From Escherichia coli (GTDB lineage: Bacteria > Pseudomonadota > Gammaproteobacteria > Enterobacterales > Enterobacteriaceae): 64,000 bases of DNA. The stretch lies in assembly GCF_965641715.1 (NCBI RefSeq), contig NZ_OZ282453.1; one strand, given 5' to 3'. Under the pieces are notes generated by a model that was not told the origin of the DNA, ran no database searches, and saw nothing but the letters and a program-made list of their open reading frames with translations. Shown here in pieces: positions 27,618 through 52,351 of the stretch. Position 1 is the first letter of the stretch. Every line of letters begins with the position of its first letter. The translations under genes were made by a program, and so were the position numbers.

Positions 27618-27863
27618 ACCTTTTTTCTCCTGTAAATAAAAAAGAGCCACCAGCGGCCCACCAAAAAACACCCCGTCAAAGACACCTGCACCCACAGATG
27701 CCTTTTGTGTGGTGTTATTCAGATTTGCGCAGTAAAGGCCAGAGAACAACCATCACCATCGCTACCAGCACGCCATCAGCCAGAACCGACATCAGCCGTC
27801 CGGCAAAATCTACTGCCACTACCAGAAACAGCAGGATGGCAGCCAGCACAAGACGTGCACTTT

Positions 27864-28289
27864 TCACAGATACTGCTCCAGTGGTAACTGAAGCGCCTGT
27901 GCAATTTTCTTGAGCTGCGCTTCTTCATCCGGACTAATGCTATCCTGGTCAGCGATATCCAGACAGAGGCACAGTACGTCAACCGCCTCTGTTGTCCCTG
28001 CCACGTCAGCCAGCTGACGGAGGGCTTCAGCATTGGCAGAACGCGGGGATGCTTCATAACGGGCGCGGATATTGGCGCTCATCTGGGCAATCTCACCTGA
28101 GAACAGCGCAAAGGCCGGAAGTGCTGCAATGGTTTTCTCCAGCACTGCGATTTCTTTCGCGTCGCAGGTACCGTCAGCATATGCAATGGAATATGCGCCC
28201 CAGACGGTCGCTTCCACCGCATCGCGATTTTCCATCTTCTTCACCTCAACAATCGCCTTGCAGGTTTTCTTTTTGAAAATACCAAACAT
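27864..28289 (-). CDS. Hypothetical late-region protein (possible TerB-like fold)
   Basis: 141-aa ORF from MFGIFKKKTC with RBS; acidic helical protein; TerB assignment is a guess from composition only. Confidence 0.4.
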   Translation of the reverse strand: MFGIFKKKTCKAIVEVKKMENRDAVEATVWGAYSIAYADGTCDAKEIAVLEKTIAALPAFALFSGEIAQMSANIRARYEASPRSANAEALRQLADVAGTTEAVDVLCLCLDIADQDSISPDEEAQLKKIAQALQLPLEQYL

Positions 28290-28462
28290 CGTGACGTTTC
28301 CTTTTAGTGGGAGAGCCTCGCCCCGGGATGAGCAGCCCACAGAGAAAGTCACACCGACCATCCCGTAAGCTCCCCCCCCCTGAAAGGCTCTGTGGTTTTT
28401 GATGTGCACCGGACGTGGCGCGGATATGAAAAAAGCTCGCAGTAGCGGGCCTGGCTACAGGC

Positions 28463-28488
28463 AAAAAAATACCCGTCCGGAGACGGGC
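28463..28488 (-). terminator. Rho-independent terminator (minus strand)
   Basis: Minus strand GCCCGTCTCCGGACGGG hairpin followed by TATTTTTTT. Confidence 0.5.
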
Positions 28489-28533
28489 TAACACATTCAA
28501 CATGTAAGAGTGGAACAGCGTTTATTTTAAGTA

Positions 28534-28620
28534 TGGTCGCCGCCAGAATGAGTCGTCAGATTGCAACGCAATTCTGGCAAATCGCAGGCACCAAAACAGG
28601 CAACGACTCATTCTGGCAAC
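28534..28620. repeat. 15-bp perfect inverted repeat (GCCAGAATGAGTCGT / ACGACTCATTCTGGC) with nested alternative pairing and direct repeats, followed by a T-run
   Basis: Read directly: arms at 28534-28548 and 28595-28609; ATTCTGGCA and GGCAACGAC each occur twice. Confidence 0.7.
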
Positions 28621-28773
28621 GACTTTTTTCCAATAACGCAACTTCATGAACAAAAAAAAGAACAGCACTGTATCCGCTATTGCAGAATGGAGAACAATAA
28701 AAAACCTGAACTATTATTCAACTCGGAAAACCGCCAGTGCTGTAAAAGTCCGTCAGAAATAAAACAATGAAGT

Positions 28774-28850
28774 TGTGGAGAACAGGAATCGAACCTGCAT
28801 CGCCAACCCAGAAGGCTGCGGTAATAGCTACTATACGATACCTGAATAAA
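28774..28850 (-). tRNA. tRNA-like sequence, probably a 3' fragment or pseudo-tRNA (canonical T-arm, no acceptor stem found)
   Basis: Minus strand GCAGGTTCGATTCCTGT T-arm preceded by CCTTCTGG; no complementary 5' acceptor strand could be found by eye. Confidence 0.3.
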
Positions 28851-29358
28851 GAGCAGGCCTCCGTAACCACAATAATGATACTGATAACAGACCTTCAATA
28901 TGATTGAACGGAAGCCTACAATGAACCGCAAGACAGCGGGGAACACCGCTGTGAACATAAACTTGCTGTCTTCCGGGTCGGGAGTAATATTACCGATAAT
29001 TCATATGACATCAAAAACTAATTAGTTTTCAGATTTAAAAATATGTATAAATCTGTATCAATTACATACAGTTTATGTTATTCCATCCAGAATTCTGATT
29101 TCGCACAGGAGATTGCGTAAAAACTAACACAAATATAAACGATTTGGGAACACACTGATTCAGTTGTCGCAATAAATAACAGGAAACACTCCGGGAATAA
29201 CAGATCGCAAGACTTACATCAGCAGGAGTTTTTGCAACATTTAACGTTAATTGTATCGTTGATAGAAAATCTATGACGCAATATGGTGAACTAACAGAGC
29301 CTGACGAATATCCCAATTACGCCGAGCTAATAGCGCTGCCAGCTAAACTTGCATGGAA

Positions 29359-29435
29359 TGGTCCGCCACCGGGTGCTCGAACCTCGCACAATCAACTTAG
29401 AAGGCTGATGCTCTATCCAGATGAGCTGGTGGCGG
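29359..29435 (-). tRNA. tRNA-Arg (anticodon UCU)-like, phage-encoded; T-stem imperfect
   Basis: Acceptor stem CCGCCAC/GTGGCGG, D-arm GCTC-ATCTGGATA-GAGC, anticodon loop CTTCTAA, 3' ACCA; two mismatches in the T-stem. Confidence 0.55.
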
Positions 29436-29437
29436 AA

Positions 29438-29513
29438 TGGTGGCCCTTGCTGGATTTGAACCAGCGACCTGGCGATTATGAGTCGCTCGCTCTAACCACT
29501 GAGCTAAAGGGCC
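29438..29513 (-). tRNA. ileZ: tRNA-Ile2 (anticodon CAU, ileX/ileZ-like), phage-encoded
   Basis: Minus strand GGCCCTTTAGCTCAGTGGTTAGAGCGAGCGACTCATAATCGCCAGGTCGCTGGTTCAAATCCAGCAAGGGCCACCA is near-identical to recalled E. coli tRNA-Ile2. Confidence 0.85.
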
Positions 29514-29553: not shown

Positions 29554-30612
29554 TCATCCGTTCTGACTGACTAAATCCTGTACTTCCCTGACCGTCTGCT
29601 CAAAACGCTCAGTCTCCAGCTCAACACCAATCACACGACGTCCCTGCGCCATCGCTGCTTTGACTGTCGAACCTGACCCCATGAAGAAATCTGCAACCAG
29701 GTCTCCCGGACGGCTGCTTGCGCTGATTATCTGCTGCAACATTTCTGCCGGTTTTTCGCACGGGTGCTTCCCGGGATAGTACTGCACCGGTTTATGCGTC
29801 CACACATCGGTGTACGGCACCTGCACAGTCACACCGAAATACCGCCGCAAATTTTTATATTCACTCAGCAGTTCCGTATACTGCCGGTTCAGTTCACTGT
29901 ATGTGCTGACCAGTTGGTAATGTGGCTTTTCCAGTTCTCCGCACTGGTGCTTCTCTTCTGCCACTCGGGCAAACAGTGCCTGTAATTTCAGATAATCGCT
30001 TTCATTCGGTAGCTGCCACTGACTGGCACTGAACCAGTGCGACACCATGTTTTTCTTTCCTGTAGCATCCACAATCTGTTTTGCCGTAATCCCCAGGGCC
30101 GCACGCGCATCACAAAAGTAAGAAATCAGCGGGGCCATCACATGCTGTTTCAGAGCCCTGCCCTTTGCCGCATAGCCATCATTTTTTAGCTGATATGGCC
30201 CCTGATAATGTCCGGCAAACAGAATGCGCTCTGTTGCCGGAAAATACGCCCGCAGGCTTTCCTTGTTGCACCCGTTCCAACGTCCGGACGGCTTCGCCCA
30301 GATGATATGGTTAAGCACGTTGAAACGTTCACGCATCATGATCTCAATATCAGATGCCAGGCGATGTCCACAGAACAGGTAAAGGCTTCCGGCAGGTTTC
30401 AACACCCGCCAGAACTGGGCCAGACAGTGGTCCAGCCACTTAAGGTAACCTTCGTCCCCTTTCCACTGATTGTCCCAGCCGTTGGGTTTCACCTTGAAGT
30501 ACGGCGGATCGGTAACAATCAGGTCAATGGAATCATCAGGCAGGGACTGAATAAAATGCAGGCAATCAGCGTTGATCAAATCAACACTGTTTATTTTTAC
30601 AGTATTTTTCAT
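29554..30612 (-). CDS. Orphan DNA N6-adenine methyltransferase (DPPY motif)
   Basis: IDLIVTDPPYF catalytic motif and C-terminal FFMGSGST AdoMet motif; no adjacent restriction enzyme gene. Confidence 0.85.
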   Translation of the reverse strand: MKNTVKINSVDLINADCLHFIQSLPDDSIDLIVTDPPYFKVKPNGWDNQWKGDEGYLKWLDHCLAQFWRVLKPAGSLYLFCGHRLASDIEIMMRERFNVLNHIIWAKPSGRWNGCNKESLRAYFPATERILFAGHYQGPYQLKNDGYAAKGRALKQHVMAPLISYFCDARAALGITAKQIVDATGKKNMVSHWFSASQWQLPNESDYLKLQALFARVAEEKHQCGELEKPHYQLVSTYSELNRQYTELLSEYKNLRRYFGVTVQVPYTDVWTHKPVQYYPGKHPCEKPAEMLQQIISASSRPGDLVADFFMGSGSTVKAAMAQGRRVIGVELETERFEQTVREVQDLVSQNG

Positions 30613-30990: not shown

Positions 30991-31244
30991 GACATACCAA
31001 TAACTCTTGTCTAAAAAGCCAGCAAGATAAAAAGTCAGTATTCACGACCACCAGCGTGTTTACTGTACTGCACCAGGTTTACAGGTACAAAAAACCGCTC
31101 GACGGCGGGTTTAAGCTGTGTGGCGAAGTAACCACTCTTAACAGATTAAGATAAAATTTGCGGACCGCGGTAATTTTTTTTGCTAAATTAAAGCCATATA
31201 AAAAATAAGATCCATAAGAAATTATTAGTATACTAAGGTTTAAC

Positions 31245-32186
31245 ATGGCTACTATTGCGCAATCAAAGAAACAAAAAAAACTTAAAATTGGTTTTTACAC
31301 CAGCAGTTCTGGGACTATCCGCAGCCATTCAGTTGCTAAGCAAGCAATTGAAAATCTGTATAATACTTGCGTAACCGTTACGAATAATCATTTTGATACC
31401 ATCTATAGAAATAAAAAGTTAAAAATAGCTTTTATAAATAAAGATACAAAAGCTAAATATTTCTTCGGCTACATGTCATGCTCACGAGAAGAGTATCTCC
31501 TTCCTTATATTGGTGATGAACACTGGAATGAGCACAACATACCACTAGATGATAAAAAATACATAGTCGAAAGAACCTATTTTTTATATTATTACGATAG
31601 TGATATTTTAATATTAACTCAAAATCATCTTGGGCCGAAAGAATCGGATTTAGCTTATCTGCTTTACAGCCAGAGTGGTAATCCTGGAAATAACTTTTCA
31701 TTCCAAGCCATCTGGAAAAAAGAGAGCGTCAAAGAGCTACTTGAAACAGGAAGTACTTTGAGAAGTTGTGATATTGTCCTGGCTGCTCCCAGGAACTTTG
31801 ATGCAACAAATTACCAGCTAAATAGTTCATTTTCTAAGGAACTGGTAAATATGATGGTAGGGCTGGGTGGAACACGTCTCAAGTTAAATCTAAGGGGACG
31901 TGCATCAGGGAGAGTAAAAGTCAAAGGTTATTTATCAGATCTCGTTAAGGATGGTATTAAAGAACTCCTTGAAAAAATGCCGGGAATTGTAAAAAAAGCG
32001 GCAGTAACACAGCCCAAAAATACCGTTGAACAAAGTCTTCTTGATCAGGTACTCATTTCAGAAAAAAACATATATACCGTTAATGGTTATGGCACTGATA
32101 GTGATGTTCTGCAAGCCATGATTTCTGCTAAAATTGATAACAATGAATACCTTAAGCAATACGATATCAGCAAAAAGAAGGTATAG
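31245..32186 (+). CDS. RexA-like protein (remote homolog of lambda RexA)
   Basis: 313 aa, AT-rich; local matches to recalled lambda RexA (KIGFYTSS vs KNGFYATY; LGPKESDLAYLL vs FGPTTSDLTDFL); 3 nt upstream of the rexB-like gene. Confidence 0.6.
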   Translation: MATIAQSKKQKKLKIGFYTSSSGTIRSHSVAKQAIENLYNTCVTVTNNHFDTIYRNKKLKIAFINKDTKAKYFFGYMSCSREEYLLPYIGDEHWNEHNIPLDDKKYIVERTYFLYYYDSDILILTQNHLGPKESDLAYLLYSQSGNPGNNFSFQAIWKKESVKELLETGSTLRSCDIVLAAPRNFDATNYQLNSSFSKELVNMMVGLGGTRLKLNLRGRASGRVKVKGYLSDLVKDGIKELLEKMPGIVKKAAVTQPKNTVEQSLLDQVLISEKNIYTVNGYGTDSDVLQAMISAKIDNNEYLKQYDISKKKV

Positions 32187-32189
32187 GAT

Positions 32190-32633
32190 ATGTTATTGAA
32201 ATACTTAAGAAACCTGATTGTAAGTGTTTTTTGCACCTTGTTCCTACTGAGGTATATCCCTCAGATGGGGCATGCTGACATACTTACAGCCTCCGGGGTT
32301 ATTTCAACTGTATCCGGTATTTTATTTGGTTTTATTTTAGCCACAATATCAATTTTTAGTGCTGCTAGCGAAAACTCAAATGGAATAATAAAAGCATTAA
32401 AAAACAACAACATACTTCAAGTTATTATTGTAAATCTATTAACCGCAGGTGCATCTTTAATTACGGCATGCGTTATTGCTTTGATAGCAATGTTTGCCAA
32501 TGAAAAGACATTGTTACATGGAGAAAAAATAGAATTTATTTTAATTATCGAATCTTTATCTCTTCTTATCATTTCAGTAATAACTTTTGCCTTTACATGG
32601 AGAAAAGTAAACTGGATACTCCCCCACATTTAA
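32190..32633 (+). CDS. RexB-like 4-TM membrane protein
   Basis: 147 aa; N-terminal LIVSVFCTLFLLRYIPQ vs recalled lambda RexB VIVSICYLLFRHYIPG; multi-pass TM, similar length (lambda RexB is 144 aa). Confidence 0.65.
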   Translation: MLLKYLRNLIVSVFCTLFLLRYIPQMGHADILTASGVISTVSGILFGFILATISIFSAASENSNGIIKALKNNNILQVIIVNLLTAGASLITACVIALIAMFANEKTLLHGEKIEFILIIESLSLLIISVITFAFTWRKVNWILPHI

Positions 32634-32656
32634 AAAGGGCAGAAATGCCCTTTTTT

Positions 32657-37105: not shown

Positions 37106-37934
37106 GACGATGCCCTCCGCTGATATTCAGGAAACGGTGAATATGAAGATTAGCCTTATCCGCCAGACGAATACGTTCAGCCTGCAAGTTAAGAAGGGTT
37201 TCTACCAGAACCTGATGCGCCTGCGGATCCGAAAGAGTTACCTTGCGCAGAGCACGTAGTGCAGTTGTTACATAGCTGAGTTTATGTAAGTCTTCATCAT
37301 TCAGACGAGTGAGGGCTGGGACAGTAGCCATGATGGCAGCCTCCGTATGCAATGGATAACTTCCACCACCGGAAACGCCAATTTCGCTGGTGGTGAACTG
37401 AGCAGGGTTGGCGTAACCGGCGCATACGGAAACCGGCGCACCTTTCGGTGCCCCCACCCAGCCCACCATAATTTGGGTATAGCTGAGTTGTAGCAACAAA
37501 AAAGACGCTAACGCGCCAATTGTCGCCGTATGCAATTCCAGGACGCCAATCCCGGCACCCGCTTTATAAGGTGCCTGAACAGTGTAACGTCCCGGAATGG
37601 CAGAATCAATGTGCTGGTGGTCCTTCACACTCAACAAAATCACGCCTGAATTTCCACAAAGGGCTAAAGCACTCATGCGGGTAGTCTTTGCGAAGATAGA
37701 TAACGCGCTGTGTTTCTGGTTCCCAACGAATAACATGGACATAAAGCCCTCTTCCGTCACGAAACCAGCGGTTAAGTTCCCGCACAACTCGCCCCCCACA
37801 GTCAGGTAAAGTTCTCTGTGGTTACTTACAGCCAGGTGATTTGGTAATCTGCATTCATGCCGTAACAACAGGTGTTCAGCGACACTGACCACCAGCTGTT
37901 GCGACAAACGGTTATTTGCCGTTAAACTGTTCAT
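37098..37934 (-). CDS. Hypothetical early-right operon protein (YdaU-like by position and size only)
   Basis: 278-aa ORF coupled to flanking genes; no motif recognised. Confidence 0.5.
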   Translation of the reverse strand: MNSLTANNRLSQQLVVSVAEHLLLRHECRLPNHLAVSNHRELYLTVGGELCGNLTAGFVTEEGFMSMLFVGNQKHSALSIFAKTTRMSALALCGNSGVILLSVKDHQHIDSAIPGRYTVQAPYKAGAGIGVLELHTATIGALASFLLLQLSYTQIMVGWVGAPKGAPVSVCAGYANPAQFTTSEIGVSGGGSYPLHTEAAIMATVPALTRLNDEDLHKLSYVTTALRALRKVTLSDPQAHQVLVETLLNLQAERIRLADKANLHIHRFLNISGGHRHA

Positions 37935-51724: not shown

Positions 51725-51905
<181 letters not shown>

Positions 51906-52028: not shown

Positions 52029-52115
52029 GCGAAGGTGGCGGAATTGGTAGACGCGCTAGCTTCAGGTGTTAGTGTCCTTACGGACGTGGGGGTTCAAGTC
52101 CCCCCCCTCGCACCA
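52029..52115 (+). tRNA. leuQ: tRNA-Leu (CAG)
   Basis: GCGAAGGTGGCGGAATTGGTAGACGCG...GGTTCAAGTCCCCCCCCTCGCACCA, 87 nt, first of three tandem copies. Confidence 0.95.
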
Positions 52116-52143
52116 AAAACCACGTTGATATTGCTCGCACTGG

Positions 52144-52230
52144 GCGAAGGTGGCGGAATTGGTAGACGCGCTAGCTTCAGGTGTTAGTGTTCTTACGGAC
52201 GTGGGGGTTCAAGTCCCCCCCCTCGCACCA
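52144..52230 (+). tRNA. leuP: tRNA-Leu (CAG)
   Basis: Second tandem copy, one nucleotide different in the variable arm. Confidence 0.95.
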
Positions 52231-52264
52231 AACGAGGCGATATCAAAAAAAGTAAGATGACTGT

Positions 52265-52351
52265 GCGAAGGTGGCGGAATTGGTAGACGCGCTAGCTTCA
52301 GGTGTTAGTGTCCTTACGGACGTGGGGGTTCAAGTCCCCCCCCTCGCACCA
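52265..52351 (+). tRNA. leuV: tRNA-Leu (CAG)
   Basis: Third tandem copy. Confidence 0.95.

Follow-up and report, generated by a model that had tools for sequence, protein, structure and literature searches.

The stretch of DNA analysed here, 64,000 nucleotides (nt) of an Escherichia coli genome (contig NZ_OZ282453.1; the whole stretch is hereafter called the window), carries a lambda-like prophage that is 98-99.9% identical to one in the pig isolate E. coli EC416. Gene order and gene names were taken from the annotation of the EC416 record, and the coordinates were mapped onto the window. The late operon lies on the minus strand, where the gene of the Q antiterminator comes first and is followed by two opposite-strand moron genes, a small hypothetical gene, a DNA methyltransferase gene and two tRNA genes. 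After the second of these, tRNA-Arg, comes an unannotated stretch of about 1.07 kb, and then a TerB/TciA-like gene, a DUF3927 gene, two holin genes and a GH108 endolysin gene (Table 1). Inside the unannotated stretch sits an inverted repeat. It forms the long stem of a non-coding RNA module that is conserved, has no annotation and consists of a hairpin, a linker and a terminator; this module is the subject of the present report.

A perfect inverted repeat with arms of 15 base pairs (bp) had been placed at 28534-28548 and 28595-28609 by an earlier inspection of the letters of the window (the sequence-only reading). The repeat exists, but its true arms lie 8 nt further on, at 28542-28556 (GCCAGAATGAGTCGT) and 28603-28617 (ACGACTCATTCTGGC), and it extends to 21 nt per arm with 90% complementarity and 46 nt between the arms. 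In 64 kb, about 0.006 such repeats (15 bp, perfect, loop of up to 100 nt) would be expected by chance (64000 x 100 x 4^-15), and the 15-mer was found in the window solely at the two arms. Other details of the sequence-only reading were recovered as it had described them. The 46-nt loop contains a second copy of a motif of the arm (ATTCTGGC, 28571-28578), able to pair with GCCAGAAT at 28542-28549; two sequences are directly repeated, ATTCTGGCAA at 28571 and 28610 and GGCAACGACT at 28599 and 28615; a run of six T follows the hairpin on the plus strand; a minus-strand terminator is present, with a stem-loop at 28471-28488 and then a U-tract; and a tRNA fragment lies on the minus strand, with a score below the Rfam threshold. 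GCCAGAAT is present three times within 76 bp, as two direct copies and one inverted.

The same reading had spoken of a highly structured element upstream of the lysis genes. That the element is structured and non-random was borne out by the folding of both strands, in which none of 200 shuffles was as stable and the z-scores were -6.6 for the minus and -4.5 for the plus strand. The framing on the plus strand, with the hairpin followed by the T-run, had to be abandoned. The fold energy is -49.3 kcal/mol in the minus sense vs. -39.3 kcal/mol in the plus sense, and in the minus-sense RNA the two mismatches of the extended repeat become G·U, giving 21 contiguous pairs. Both the plus-strand T-run and the GGCAACGACT direct repeat are peculiar to one sequence type of the family (type A, that of the window) and are absent in the other four (types B-E).

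In the late-operon sense, the module (unit 2) consists of a long 5′ hairpin, whose main helix P1 is formed by the two arms, an A/U-rich linker and the intrinsic terminator T2. Homology to the diverged types spans from about 28621 to 28463, that is, from the base of the hairpin up to the final nucleotide of the terminator, where it ends; a covariance model built from the family (R1) scored 191 bits on unit 2 and found one copy in the window. In most members P1 is lengthened by the seven outer pairs of the apical domain, which is branched (UGCCUGU/CAGGCUG; alignment pairs 29-35 with 73-80), and the apical stem of the window has two mismatches there, C-A at 32/76 and C-U at 31/77 (alignment columns). 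The hairpin has the length of an RNase III substrate (at least 20 bp, near-continuous), with 21 bp in the window, 25 in the consensus and 27-28 with one bulge in others. The 3′ half of the linker (UUACAUGxUGAAUGYGUUA) is more conserved than the 5′ half, and T2, a 7-bp GC-rich stem with U7 that is preceded by A/U-rich single strand, has the generic features of the 3′ end of an Hfq-type small RNA (sRNA). Open reading frames (ORFs) of 38-69 amino acids overlap the region, but the types differ by indels within the hairpin (5 nt and 1 nt) that break the frame, and a small coding gene was rejected.

Table 1. Features of the late region of the prophage in the window
Feature	Position	Strand	Basis and remarks
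Unit 2: long 5′ hairpin, linker and terminator T2, ~165 nt	28460-28623	-	homology limits, covariance model
P1 5′ arm, RNA GUCGUUGCCAGAAUGAGUCGU	28603-28623	-	repeat search, fold
P1 3′ arm, RNA ACGACUCAUUCUGGCGGCGAC	28536-28556	-	repeat search, fold, alignment
Apical domain, 46 nt	28557-28602	-	alignment and per-member folds
Inner copy GCCAGAAU, pairs with 3′ arm AUUCUGGC instead of the 5′ arm	28571-28578	-	repeat search
A/U-rich single-stranded linker, ~47 nt	28489-28535	-	unpaired in minimum-energy and centroid folds
Intrinsic terminator T2, GCCCGUC-UCCG-GACGGGU then A U7	28463-28488	-	terminator scan
T6 run	28624-28629	+	sequence; absent in types B-E, so no conserved part of the element
Unit 1, conserved structured segment	28650-28747	-	almost invariant 8-bp closing stem CAGCACUG/CAGUGCUG, then U8
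Terminator T3, GCCCGC-UACU-GCGAGC then U6	28429-28450	-	sequence reading; not listed by the promoter/terminator scan
Decayed tRNA-Gly(TCC) gene	28781-28839	-	23 bits, model positions 7-64, acceptor stem lost
DNA methyltransferase gene	29554-30612	late-operon block	EC416 annotation
tRNA, anticodon CAT	29438-29513	late-operon block	EC416 annotation
tRNA-Arg	29359-29435	late-operon block	EC416 annotation
TerB/TciA-like gene	27864-28289	late-operon block	EC416 annotation
Two opposite-strand genes, DUF6731 and hypothetical	31245-32635	+	between Q and the remaining late operon

The structure was aligned across 15 distinct sequences. In the P1 consensus of 25 pairs, 96% of the cells are paired and six pairs show compensatory double changes, among them G-C to A-U, A-U to C-G and C-G to U-A, and for the T2 stem pairing reaches 100% throughout the family, one pair being compensatory (U-A to C-G). 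When one partner was slid by 1-3 columns as a control, pairing fell to 30-51%. Over all pairs, 68 G·U cells were counted vs. 3 A·C cells, with G·U at 16 pairs and A·C at two, and for each family member the fold in the late-operon sense is better by 5-13 kcal/mol. As neither duplex DNA nor a plus-strand RNA under selection would produce this asymmetry between G·U and A·C, selection acts on the minus-sense RNA. At the RNA level, and read in the sense of the late operon, unit 2 is a conserved structured unit with an intrinsic terminator at its end. Separately, GAGTC and GACTC in the stem core, near the phage methyltransferase gene, had raised the idea of GANTC methylation, which was dropped since type E has GCGTC/GGCGC.

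These data bear directly on a product of the plus strand, in which the hairpin and the T6 run would form an intrinsic terminator or a short antisense RNA against the late operon. The stability of the plus-strand fold in the window and the T6 at its end would suit such a product, but this arrangement is confined to type A, the plus sense has two A·C mismatches, no plus-strand promoter or gene was found upstream in the scan, and the wobble pattern of the whole family contradicts it. A plus-strand product is, in our judgement, extremely unlikely.

The mutually exclusive pairings that the sequence-only reading had compared to an attenuator or antitermination-type switch are real, and the pairing of the inner copy with the 3′ arm is conserved in types A-D at 8/8 or 7/8 positions, including G·U changes and one change from C-G to U-A. 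Type E has lost this alternative pairing, yet keeps P1 and T2. On the minus strand, neither helix is followed by a conserved U-run, T2 is found about 47 nt further downstream, and reading of the sequence and the alignment revealed no complement of T2 within unit 2. Because neither conformer forms or removes a terminator, and the plus-strand T6 exists only in type A, the logic of an attenuator does not apply. A switch in which the exclusive pairings decide the formation of a terminator hairpin with its T-run could appeal to the GCCAGAAU/AUUCUGGC pairing kept with its compensatory change, and to the T6 that comes directly after the plus-strand hairpin in type A. It is nevertheless very unlikely, given that the T-run is missing in four of the five types, that structural selection acts on the opposite strand, where neither conformer touches T2, that type E does without the alternative pairing, that no Rfam riboswitch or leader matches the element, and that the window annotation has no plus-strand gene downstream of the hairpin to be regulated. 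Classical attenuators and the put sites of phage HK022 resemble the element in that a structured RNA with two exclusive helices stands upstream of terminators. However, neither helix of the element is a terminator or an anti-terminator as in classical attenuators, and whereas put consists of two adjacent stem-loops right after the promoter, the element is one three-way hairpin located 2.5 kb into an operon where Q already supplies antitermination.

Conservation across related prophages, which had been suggested as a check, was found in the form of five diverged sequence types (A-E) sharing the pairing. Of 5426 complete E. coli genomes, about 24 were found to carry the element in a distant blastn search. 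Most of these are from pigs and cattle, with up to 5 places per genome, and the context was inspected at the best place per genome only. Among the carriers are E. coli EC416 (NZ_AP027404, 4799257-4799467) and ETEC1730. Matches were 96-100% identical within a type and 70-78% identical to other types. Pattern scans of viral, genome and metagenome collections yielded more copies of the same five types, and among the viral contigs the conserved 3′ part was never seen without the hairpin. No true homologue outside E. coli-phage-like contigs was detected by stem-pattern scans of species-representative genomes and of metagenomes (one each), and the INPHARED phage records gave no match to unit 2 or to the neighbouring unit 1 described below. 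A full-text literature search for the stem sequence returned no papers, and topic searches returned papers on Pas RNAs and nothing on this element.

Conservation is uneven along unit 2. Mean pairwise identity among representatives of the five types is 70-79% in the stem arms, 59% in the apical domain, 52% in the 5′ half and 64% in the 3′ half of the linker, 75% in the terminator stem-loop and 95% in the U tract, and 33% in the 7 nt located 5′ of the stem.

Several pattern matches (L031, L032/L041, L036, L042, L034, L035 and L040) were discarded as unrelated palindromes or chance matches, and the four of them that were run against Rfam gave generic hairpins. Long palindromes whose stem starts with AGAATGNGTCGT, all continuing with GC, were present in the unrelated metagenome and metagenome-assembled genome contigs L031 (323-391), L032 (1113-1176, the same as L041), L036 (5391-5484) and L042 (563-637). 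With loops and flanks unlike those of the element, they are probably chance matches among the great number of metagenome hairpins, though the shared extension is slightly above expectation.

The position of the element is also maintained. In the annotated chromosomal contexts, the order is tRNA gene or genes, element, in some cases TerB and DUF3927 genes, and then holin, holin and endolysin genes, in the same sense as Q. The viral contig L014 carries unit 2 without unit 1 or any tRNA gene, still upstream of unannotated ORFs at the holin and endolysin positions.

The make-up of the region was compared with that of phage JLK-2012. In this phage, terminator T3 lies no more than about 15 nt after an intact tRNA-Gly gene, and tciA (TerB) comes next. 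The window and types B-E have about 320 nt more between the tRNA-Gly position and T3, which correspond to unit 1 plus unit 2. Unit 1, which contains small hairpins with compensatory changes, is found together with unit 2 in most phages and may represent a further sRNA-like gene or else a large-loop terminator of an unusual kind. A pairing between unit 1 and the inner motif of unit 2 was rejected as unsupported, the sole co-located change (type D) giving G·G, and a search with the unit-1 motif matched 36 loci, of which none of the 18 new ones holds unit 2, so that these were taken as chance matches. T3 lies about 13 nt downstream of T2 and could be aligned in the window, JLK-2012, PPyecE and C5, with its stem pairing kept through changes. 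The tRNA-Gly(TCC) gene that has decayed in the window is intact at the same position in types B, D and E. Relatives with an intact tRNA-Gly gene sometimes also have tRNA-Thr and tRNA-Asn genes, in a phage P1-like tRNA-tciA-tciB arrangement. The segment of about 320 nt thus has the appearance of a moron without genes that carries terminators of its own.

Copies were also found outside prophages, on plasmids, and there only as relics. Four plasmids carry both units directly 3′ of the tnpA gene of an insertion sequence (IS) of the IS200/IS605 type, with a much weakened stem (-24 kcal/mol), and a further 23 plasmids of E. coli or E. fergusonii match unit 1 only; 24 of the 27 plasmid matches were typed as conjugative. 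The one plasmid that was read (L064) is of the IncF type and has a truncated trace of unit 2 beside unit 1. The decay of the plasmid copies suggests that function depends on the phage context.

An explanation at the level of DNA would take the element as the remnant of a transposable element (an IS200/IS605-type palindrome or a miniature inverted-repeat transposable element) or as three protein-binding sites on duplex DNA. It would be in line with the indel relative to JLK-2012, with the tnpA neighbour in the four plasmids, with the threefold GCCAGAAT and with the frequency of IS elements in this region of other prophages. On the other hand, neither terminal inverted repeats nor a clear target duplication was seen at the borders of the indel, and dispersed copies were not found: at the best place inspected per genome the phage copies are all syntenic, and multiple copies per genome (5 at the highest) fit multiple prophages. 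No transposase adjoins the element in the window, and adjacency to tnpA is confined to plasmid 'scrapyard' regions. The spacing between the arms varies from 46 to 51 nt across the members, and the 68:3 excess of G·U over A·C cannot come from selection on duplex DNA. An explanation of this kind is quite improbable. As for IS elements in related regions, a homologue of window positions 28375-28454 lies under an annotated IS110-family element (ISEc20) in LC567818 and other prophages of the PPompW type, and in E2348/69 ISEc13 and IS200C separate the esterase from the holin genes. It seems that insertion sequences are drawn to the spacer, rich in terminators, that lies upstream of the lysis genes.

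The Rfam search that had been proposed gave no family for the element. Among 4227 families, STnc100, AgvB, AsxR, Esr41, RtT, riboswitches and leaders included, there was no match at the gathering threshold on 28460-28760, and at E<=10 only noise was obtained on the element (mir-4891, Ysr49 and anti-hemB, 14-17 bits), with no STnc100. The controls worked, as STnc100 (107-145 bits) and AgvB (96 bits) were recovered in related phage loci. In three homologous loci nothing significant appeared at E<=5; the 3′ part of type D matched AgvB with 22 bits (E 2.9, threshold 56).

The closest parallels in location and layout are the Pas RNAs and STnc100. PasA, PasC and PasD adjoin TerB, DUF3927, esterase and holin genes in prophages of enteropathogenic and enterohaemorrhagic E. 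coli, and PasD2 is an Hfq-dependent sRNA from the same kind of prophage region, validated by Northern blot (PMC8550237; bioRxiv 10.64898/2026.05.13.724894). Tables from RIL-seq (a method that maps RNA interactions through ligation and sequencing) list PasA and PasC on the strand opposite to the late operon. The element has a Pas-type location: it is intergenic in a lambdoid late region, near TerB, DUF3927 and holin/lysozyme genes. It also shares with PasD1, PasD2 and STnc100 (RF02076) the late-operon sense and the intergenic position between Q and the lysis genes near TerB and DUF3927. In the fold of PasD2 a 5′ hairpin of about 100 nt is followed by a linker of about 45 nt holding the seed and by a terminator, and the STnc100 fold has the same layout; the same three parts make up the element, with a long 5′ hairpin (about 90-100 nt), then a linker of about 45 nt, and last an intrinsic terminator. 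In sequence, T2 resembles the terminator of STnc100 (GCCCGUCUCCGGACGGGU vs. GCCCCUCUCCGGAGGGGC).

In contrast, no homology to these RNAs was detectable by Rfam, blastn or model R1. With a word size of 7, blastn gave no similarity to the pas loci of E2348/69 (L029 and L030), R1 returned on these loci only noise with E>1 away from the pas coordinates and left the PasD2 locus unmatched, and forced alignment with RNAs of the Pas, STnc100 and AgvB types revealed no shared hairpin sequence, so that homology was not shown. Besides, the element is upstream of TerB and DUF3927, whereas PasD and STnc100 are downstream of them, and its stem is much more perfect. PasA and PasC share the neighbourhood of TerB, holin and lysozyme genes, as does AgvB (RF02702), but PasA and PasC lack similarity to the element in sequence or model and are much shorter (84 nt for PasA), and AgvB has no match on the window. 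The element therefore has the anatomy of PasD and STnc100 but does not belong to those families by any of these comparisons.

The interpretation that we tentatively favour, by analogy with the layout of PasD and STnc100 and somewhat short of even confidence, is that unit 2 is a prophage sRNA or pro-sRNA. The small RNA gene proposed in the sequence-only reading is accordingly plausible as a model, in view of a layout in the late-operon sense like that of prophage sRNAs, whereas its switch is unsupported. For the element we infer transcription, processing and action in trans. Polymerase that is unmodified by Q would stop at T2, with a stable RNA of about 165 nt as the product, and could have started at a candidate promoter of the tRNA operon or at another upstream or moron promoter, or have read through earlier terminators. 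The long helix would serve as a processing site of the RNase III type, and the mature form may consist of the 3′ arm, the linker and the terminator; maturation at the helix is likely because double-stranded RNA of 21-28 bp is a classic RNase III substrate. During lytic growth, Q-modified polymerase would pass T2, and the hairpin would then be located in the 5′ region of the lysis-gene mRNA.

A candidate promoter of the tRNA pair (TTGCAG-N17-TATTAT, 29551-29523 on the minus strand) was read by eye and is below the scan threshold; it lies within the 3′ end region of the methyltransferase gene and stops about 10 nt short of the 5′ end of the tRNA that has the anticodon CAT. A terminator-like site at 31094-31106 (minus strand) may be tR′.

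Release of unit 2 could also occur through tRNA processing. 3′ETS-leuZ and the RtT RNA of the tyrT operon are spacer RNAs of tRNA operons, and the element resembles them in its place downstream of a cluster of tRNA genes that have the same sense, as well as in ending at an intrinsic terminator. It differs from them in that the T-run of unit 1 stands between the tRNA and unit 2, and in that unit 2 persists where tRNA-Gly is decayed (window) or absent (L014). No match to RtT was found on the element in Rfam.

Several observations weigh against an sRNA. Helices of 21-28 bp are unusual in sRNAs of the Hfq type, and the most conserved part of unit 2 is the double-stranded core of P1 rather than a single-stranded seed. 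A sigma-70 promoter scan found none on the minus strand near or upstream of the element, and no conserved promoter was found, identity being low in the nucleotides 5′ of P1 and the upstream spacer being unconserved. Moreover, most transcription might already stop at the T-run of unit 1 and so fail to reach unit 2. When the 3′ arm and linker were hybridised in RNAduplex to the start regions of the TerB, DUF3927, endolysin and both holin genes of four phage types, z-scores ranged from -1.2 to +1.9, and no complementarity was found. Finally, the decaying plasmid copies fit a cis role in the phage context as well as they fit an sRNA.

Such a cis role is the main competing explanation, and one that we hold to be possible though on balance unlikely. 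Here the element would be an insulator and processing element of the late transcript without function in trans. In the lysogen, the U-run of unit 1, T2 and T3 would shield the lethal lysis genes from transcription that starts at the tRNA or moron promoters, as well as from PR′ read-through, and the helix would be an RNase III site that parts the tRNA-containing RNA from the lysis mRNA or sets the stability of either, as do the lambda sib and T7 sites. Lambda sib, the lambda N leader and the intercistronic sites of T7 are RNase III processing hairpins of phages, and the element resembles them in having at least 20 bp inside a long phage transcript, between functional blocks, with a stem kept by compensatory changes. 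The length and near perfection of the stem agree with this role, as do three terminator-like sites within 300 nt, all in the late-operon sense, and a position directly upstream of the lysis cassette that is kept even without the tRNA and unit 1. The fact that no conserved promoter was found, the higher conservation of the stem compared to the single-stranded linker and the decay of copies outside the phage context point the same way. However, RNase III has little sequence specificity, which leaves the near-invariant 12-bp core AGAAUGAGUCGU and the inner GCCAG unexplained, the JLK-2012 and PPyecE phages manage with T3 alone, and Q-modified polymerase ignores terminators, so that the element would not be needed for lytic expression. 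In addition, the classical sites usually have internal loops, whereas the hairpin of the element, with its near-invariant core, is joined to a linker and a terminator as one unit.

An elaboration of the sRNA interpretation gives the conserved alternative pairing a role of its own. Unit 2 would then be a self-gated pro-sRNA or lysis-timing regulator of an undescribed family, in which the three copies of the motif toggle between the long helix, fully sequestered and cleavable by RNase III, and the form with the inner copy paired to the 3′ arm. The toggle would govern the release or activity of the conserved ACGACUCAUUCUG on host or phage targets, and the element would be a non-coding moron upstream of the lysis cassette. 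This more elaborate model is improbable.

The stretch from Q to the lysis genes of lambda-like prophages carries sRNAs that link the prophage to host physiology and virulence, such as StxS, AgvB, AsxR, PasA-D and STnc100. With the element, these RNAs of the prophage late region would gain one more family, unannotated and backed by covariation, with a narrow distribution that includes livestock-associated E. coli (enterotoxigenic strains from pigs and Shiga toxin-producing strains from cattle). If expressed, it would offer a tractable case for the acquisition of non-coding morons, for the use of long perfect helices in phage RNAs (processing vs. sequestering of a seed) and for the way in which prophages bar stray transcription from their lysis genes. 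If it is merely a cluster of terminators and processing sites, it would belong to ordinary phage housekeeping.

Further observations were made on the surroundings of the element. At the spot of the two opposite-strand genes between Q and the remaining late operon, related prophages bear other cargo (an OmpC porin, a CPBP protease), and the spot is a hotspot of moron insertion. Between tRNA-Arg and the decayed tRNA-Gly gene, a stretch that contains the GC-rich hairpin ACAGCGGUGUUCCCCGCUGU (28845-28996, minus strand) weakly matches the PhrS model (21 bits, E 0.009, threshold 37). ARAGORN reported a 92-nt 'tRNA-Arg(TCT)' at 27767-27858 (minus strand) in the coding sequence of DUF3927, and made the same call in two homologous viral contigs; the Rfam tRNA model gave it no support, and it is probably a false positive. 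At 37386-37574 (minus strand), Rfam detected a C4 antisense RNA (80.7 bits) adjoining an IsrK Hfq-binding RNA (61.2 bits), a pair of regulatory RNAs in the style of P1/P7-type immunity and anti-Q inside a lambda-like prophage. Finally, three tandem tRNA-Leu(CAG) genes at 52029-52351 (plus strand) and a match to the repetitive extragenic palindromic-type naRNA4 at 51807-51889 (minus strand) mark chromosomal DNA, and the window therefore spans the junction between prophage and chromosome.

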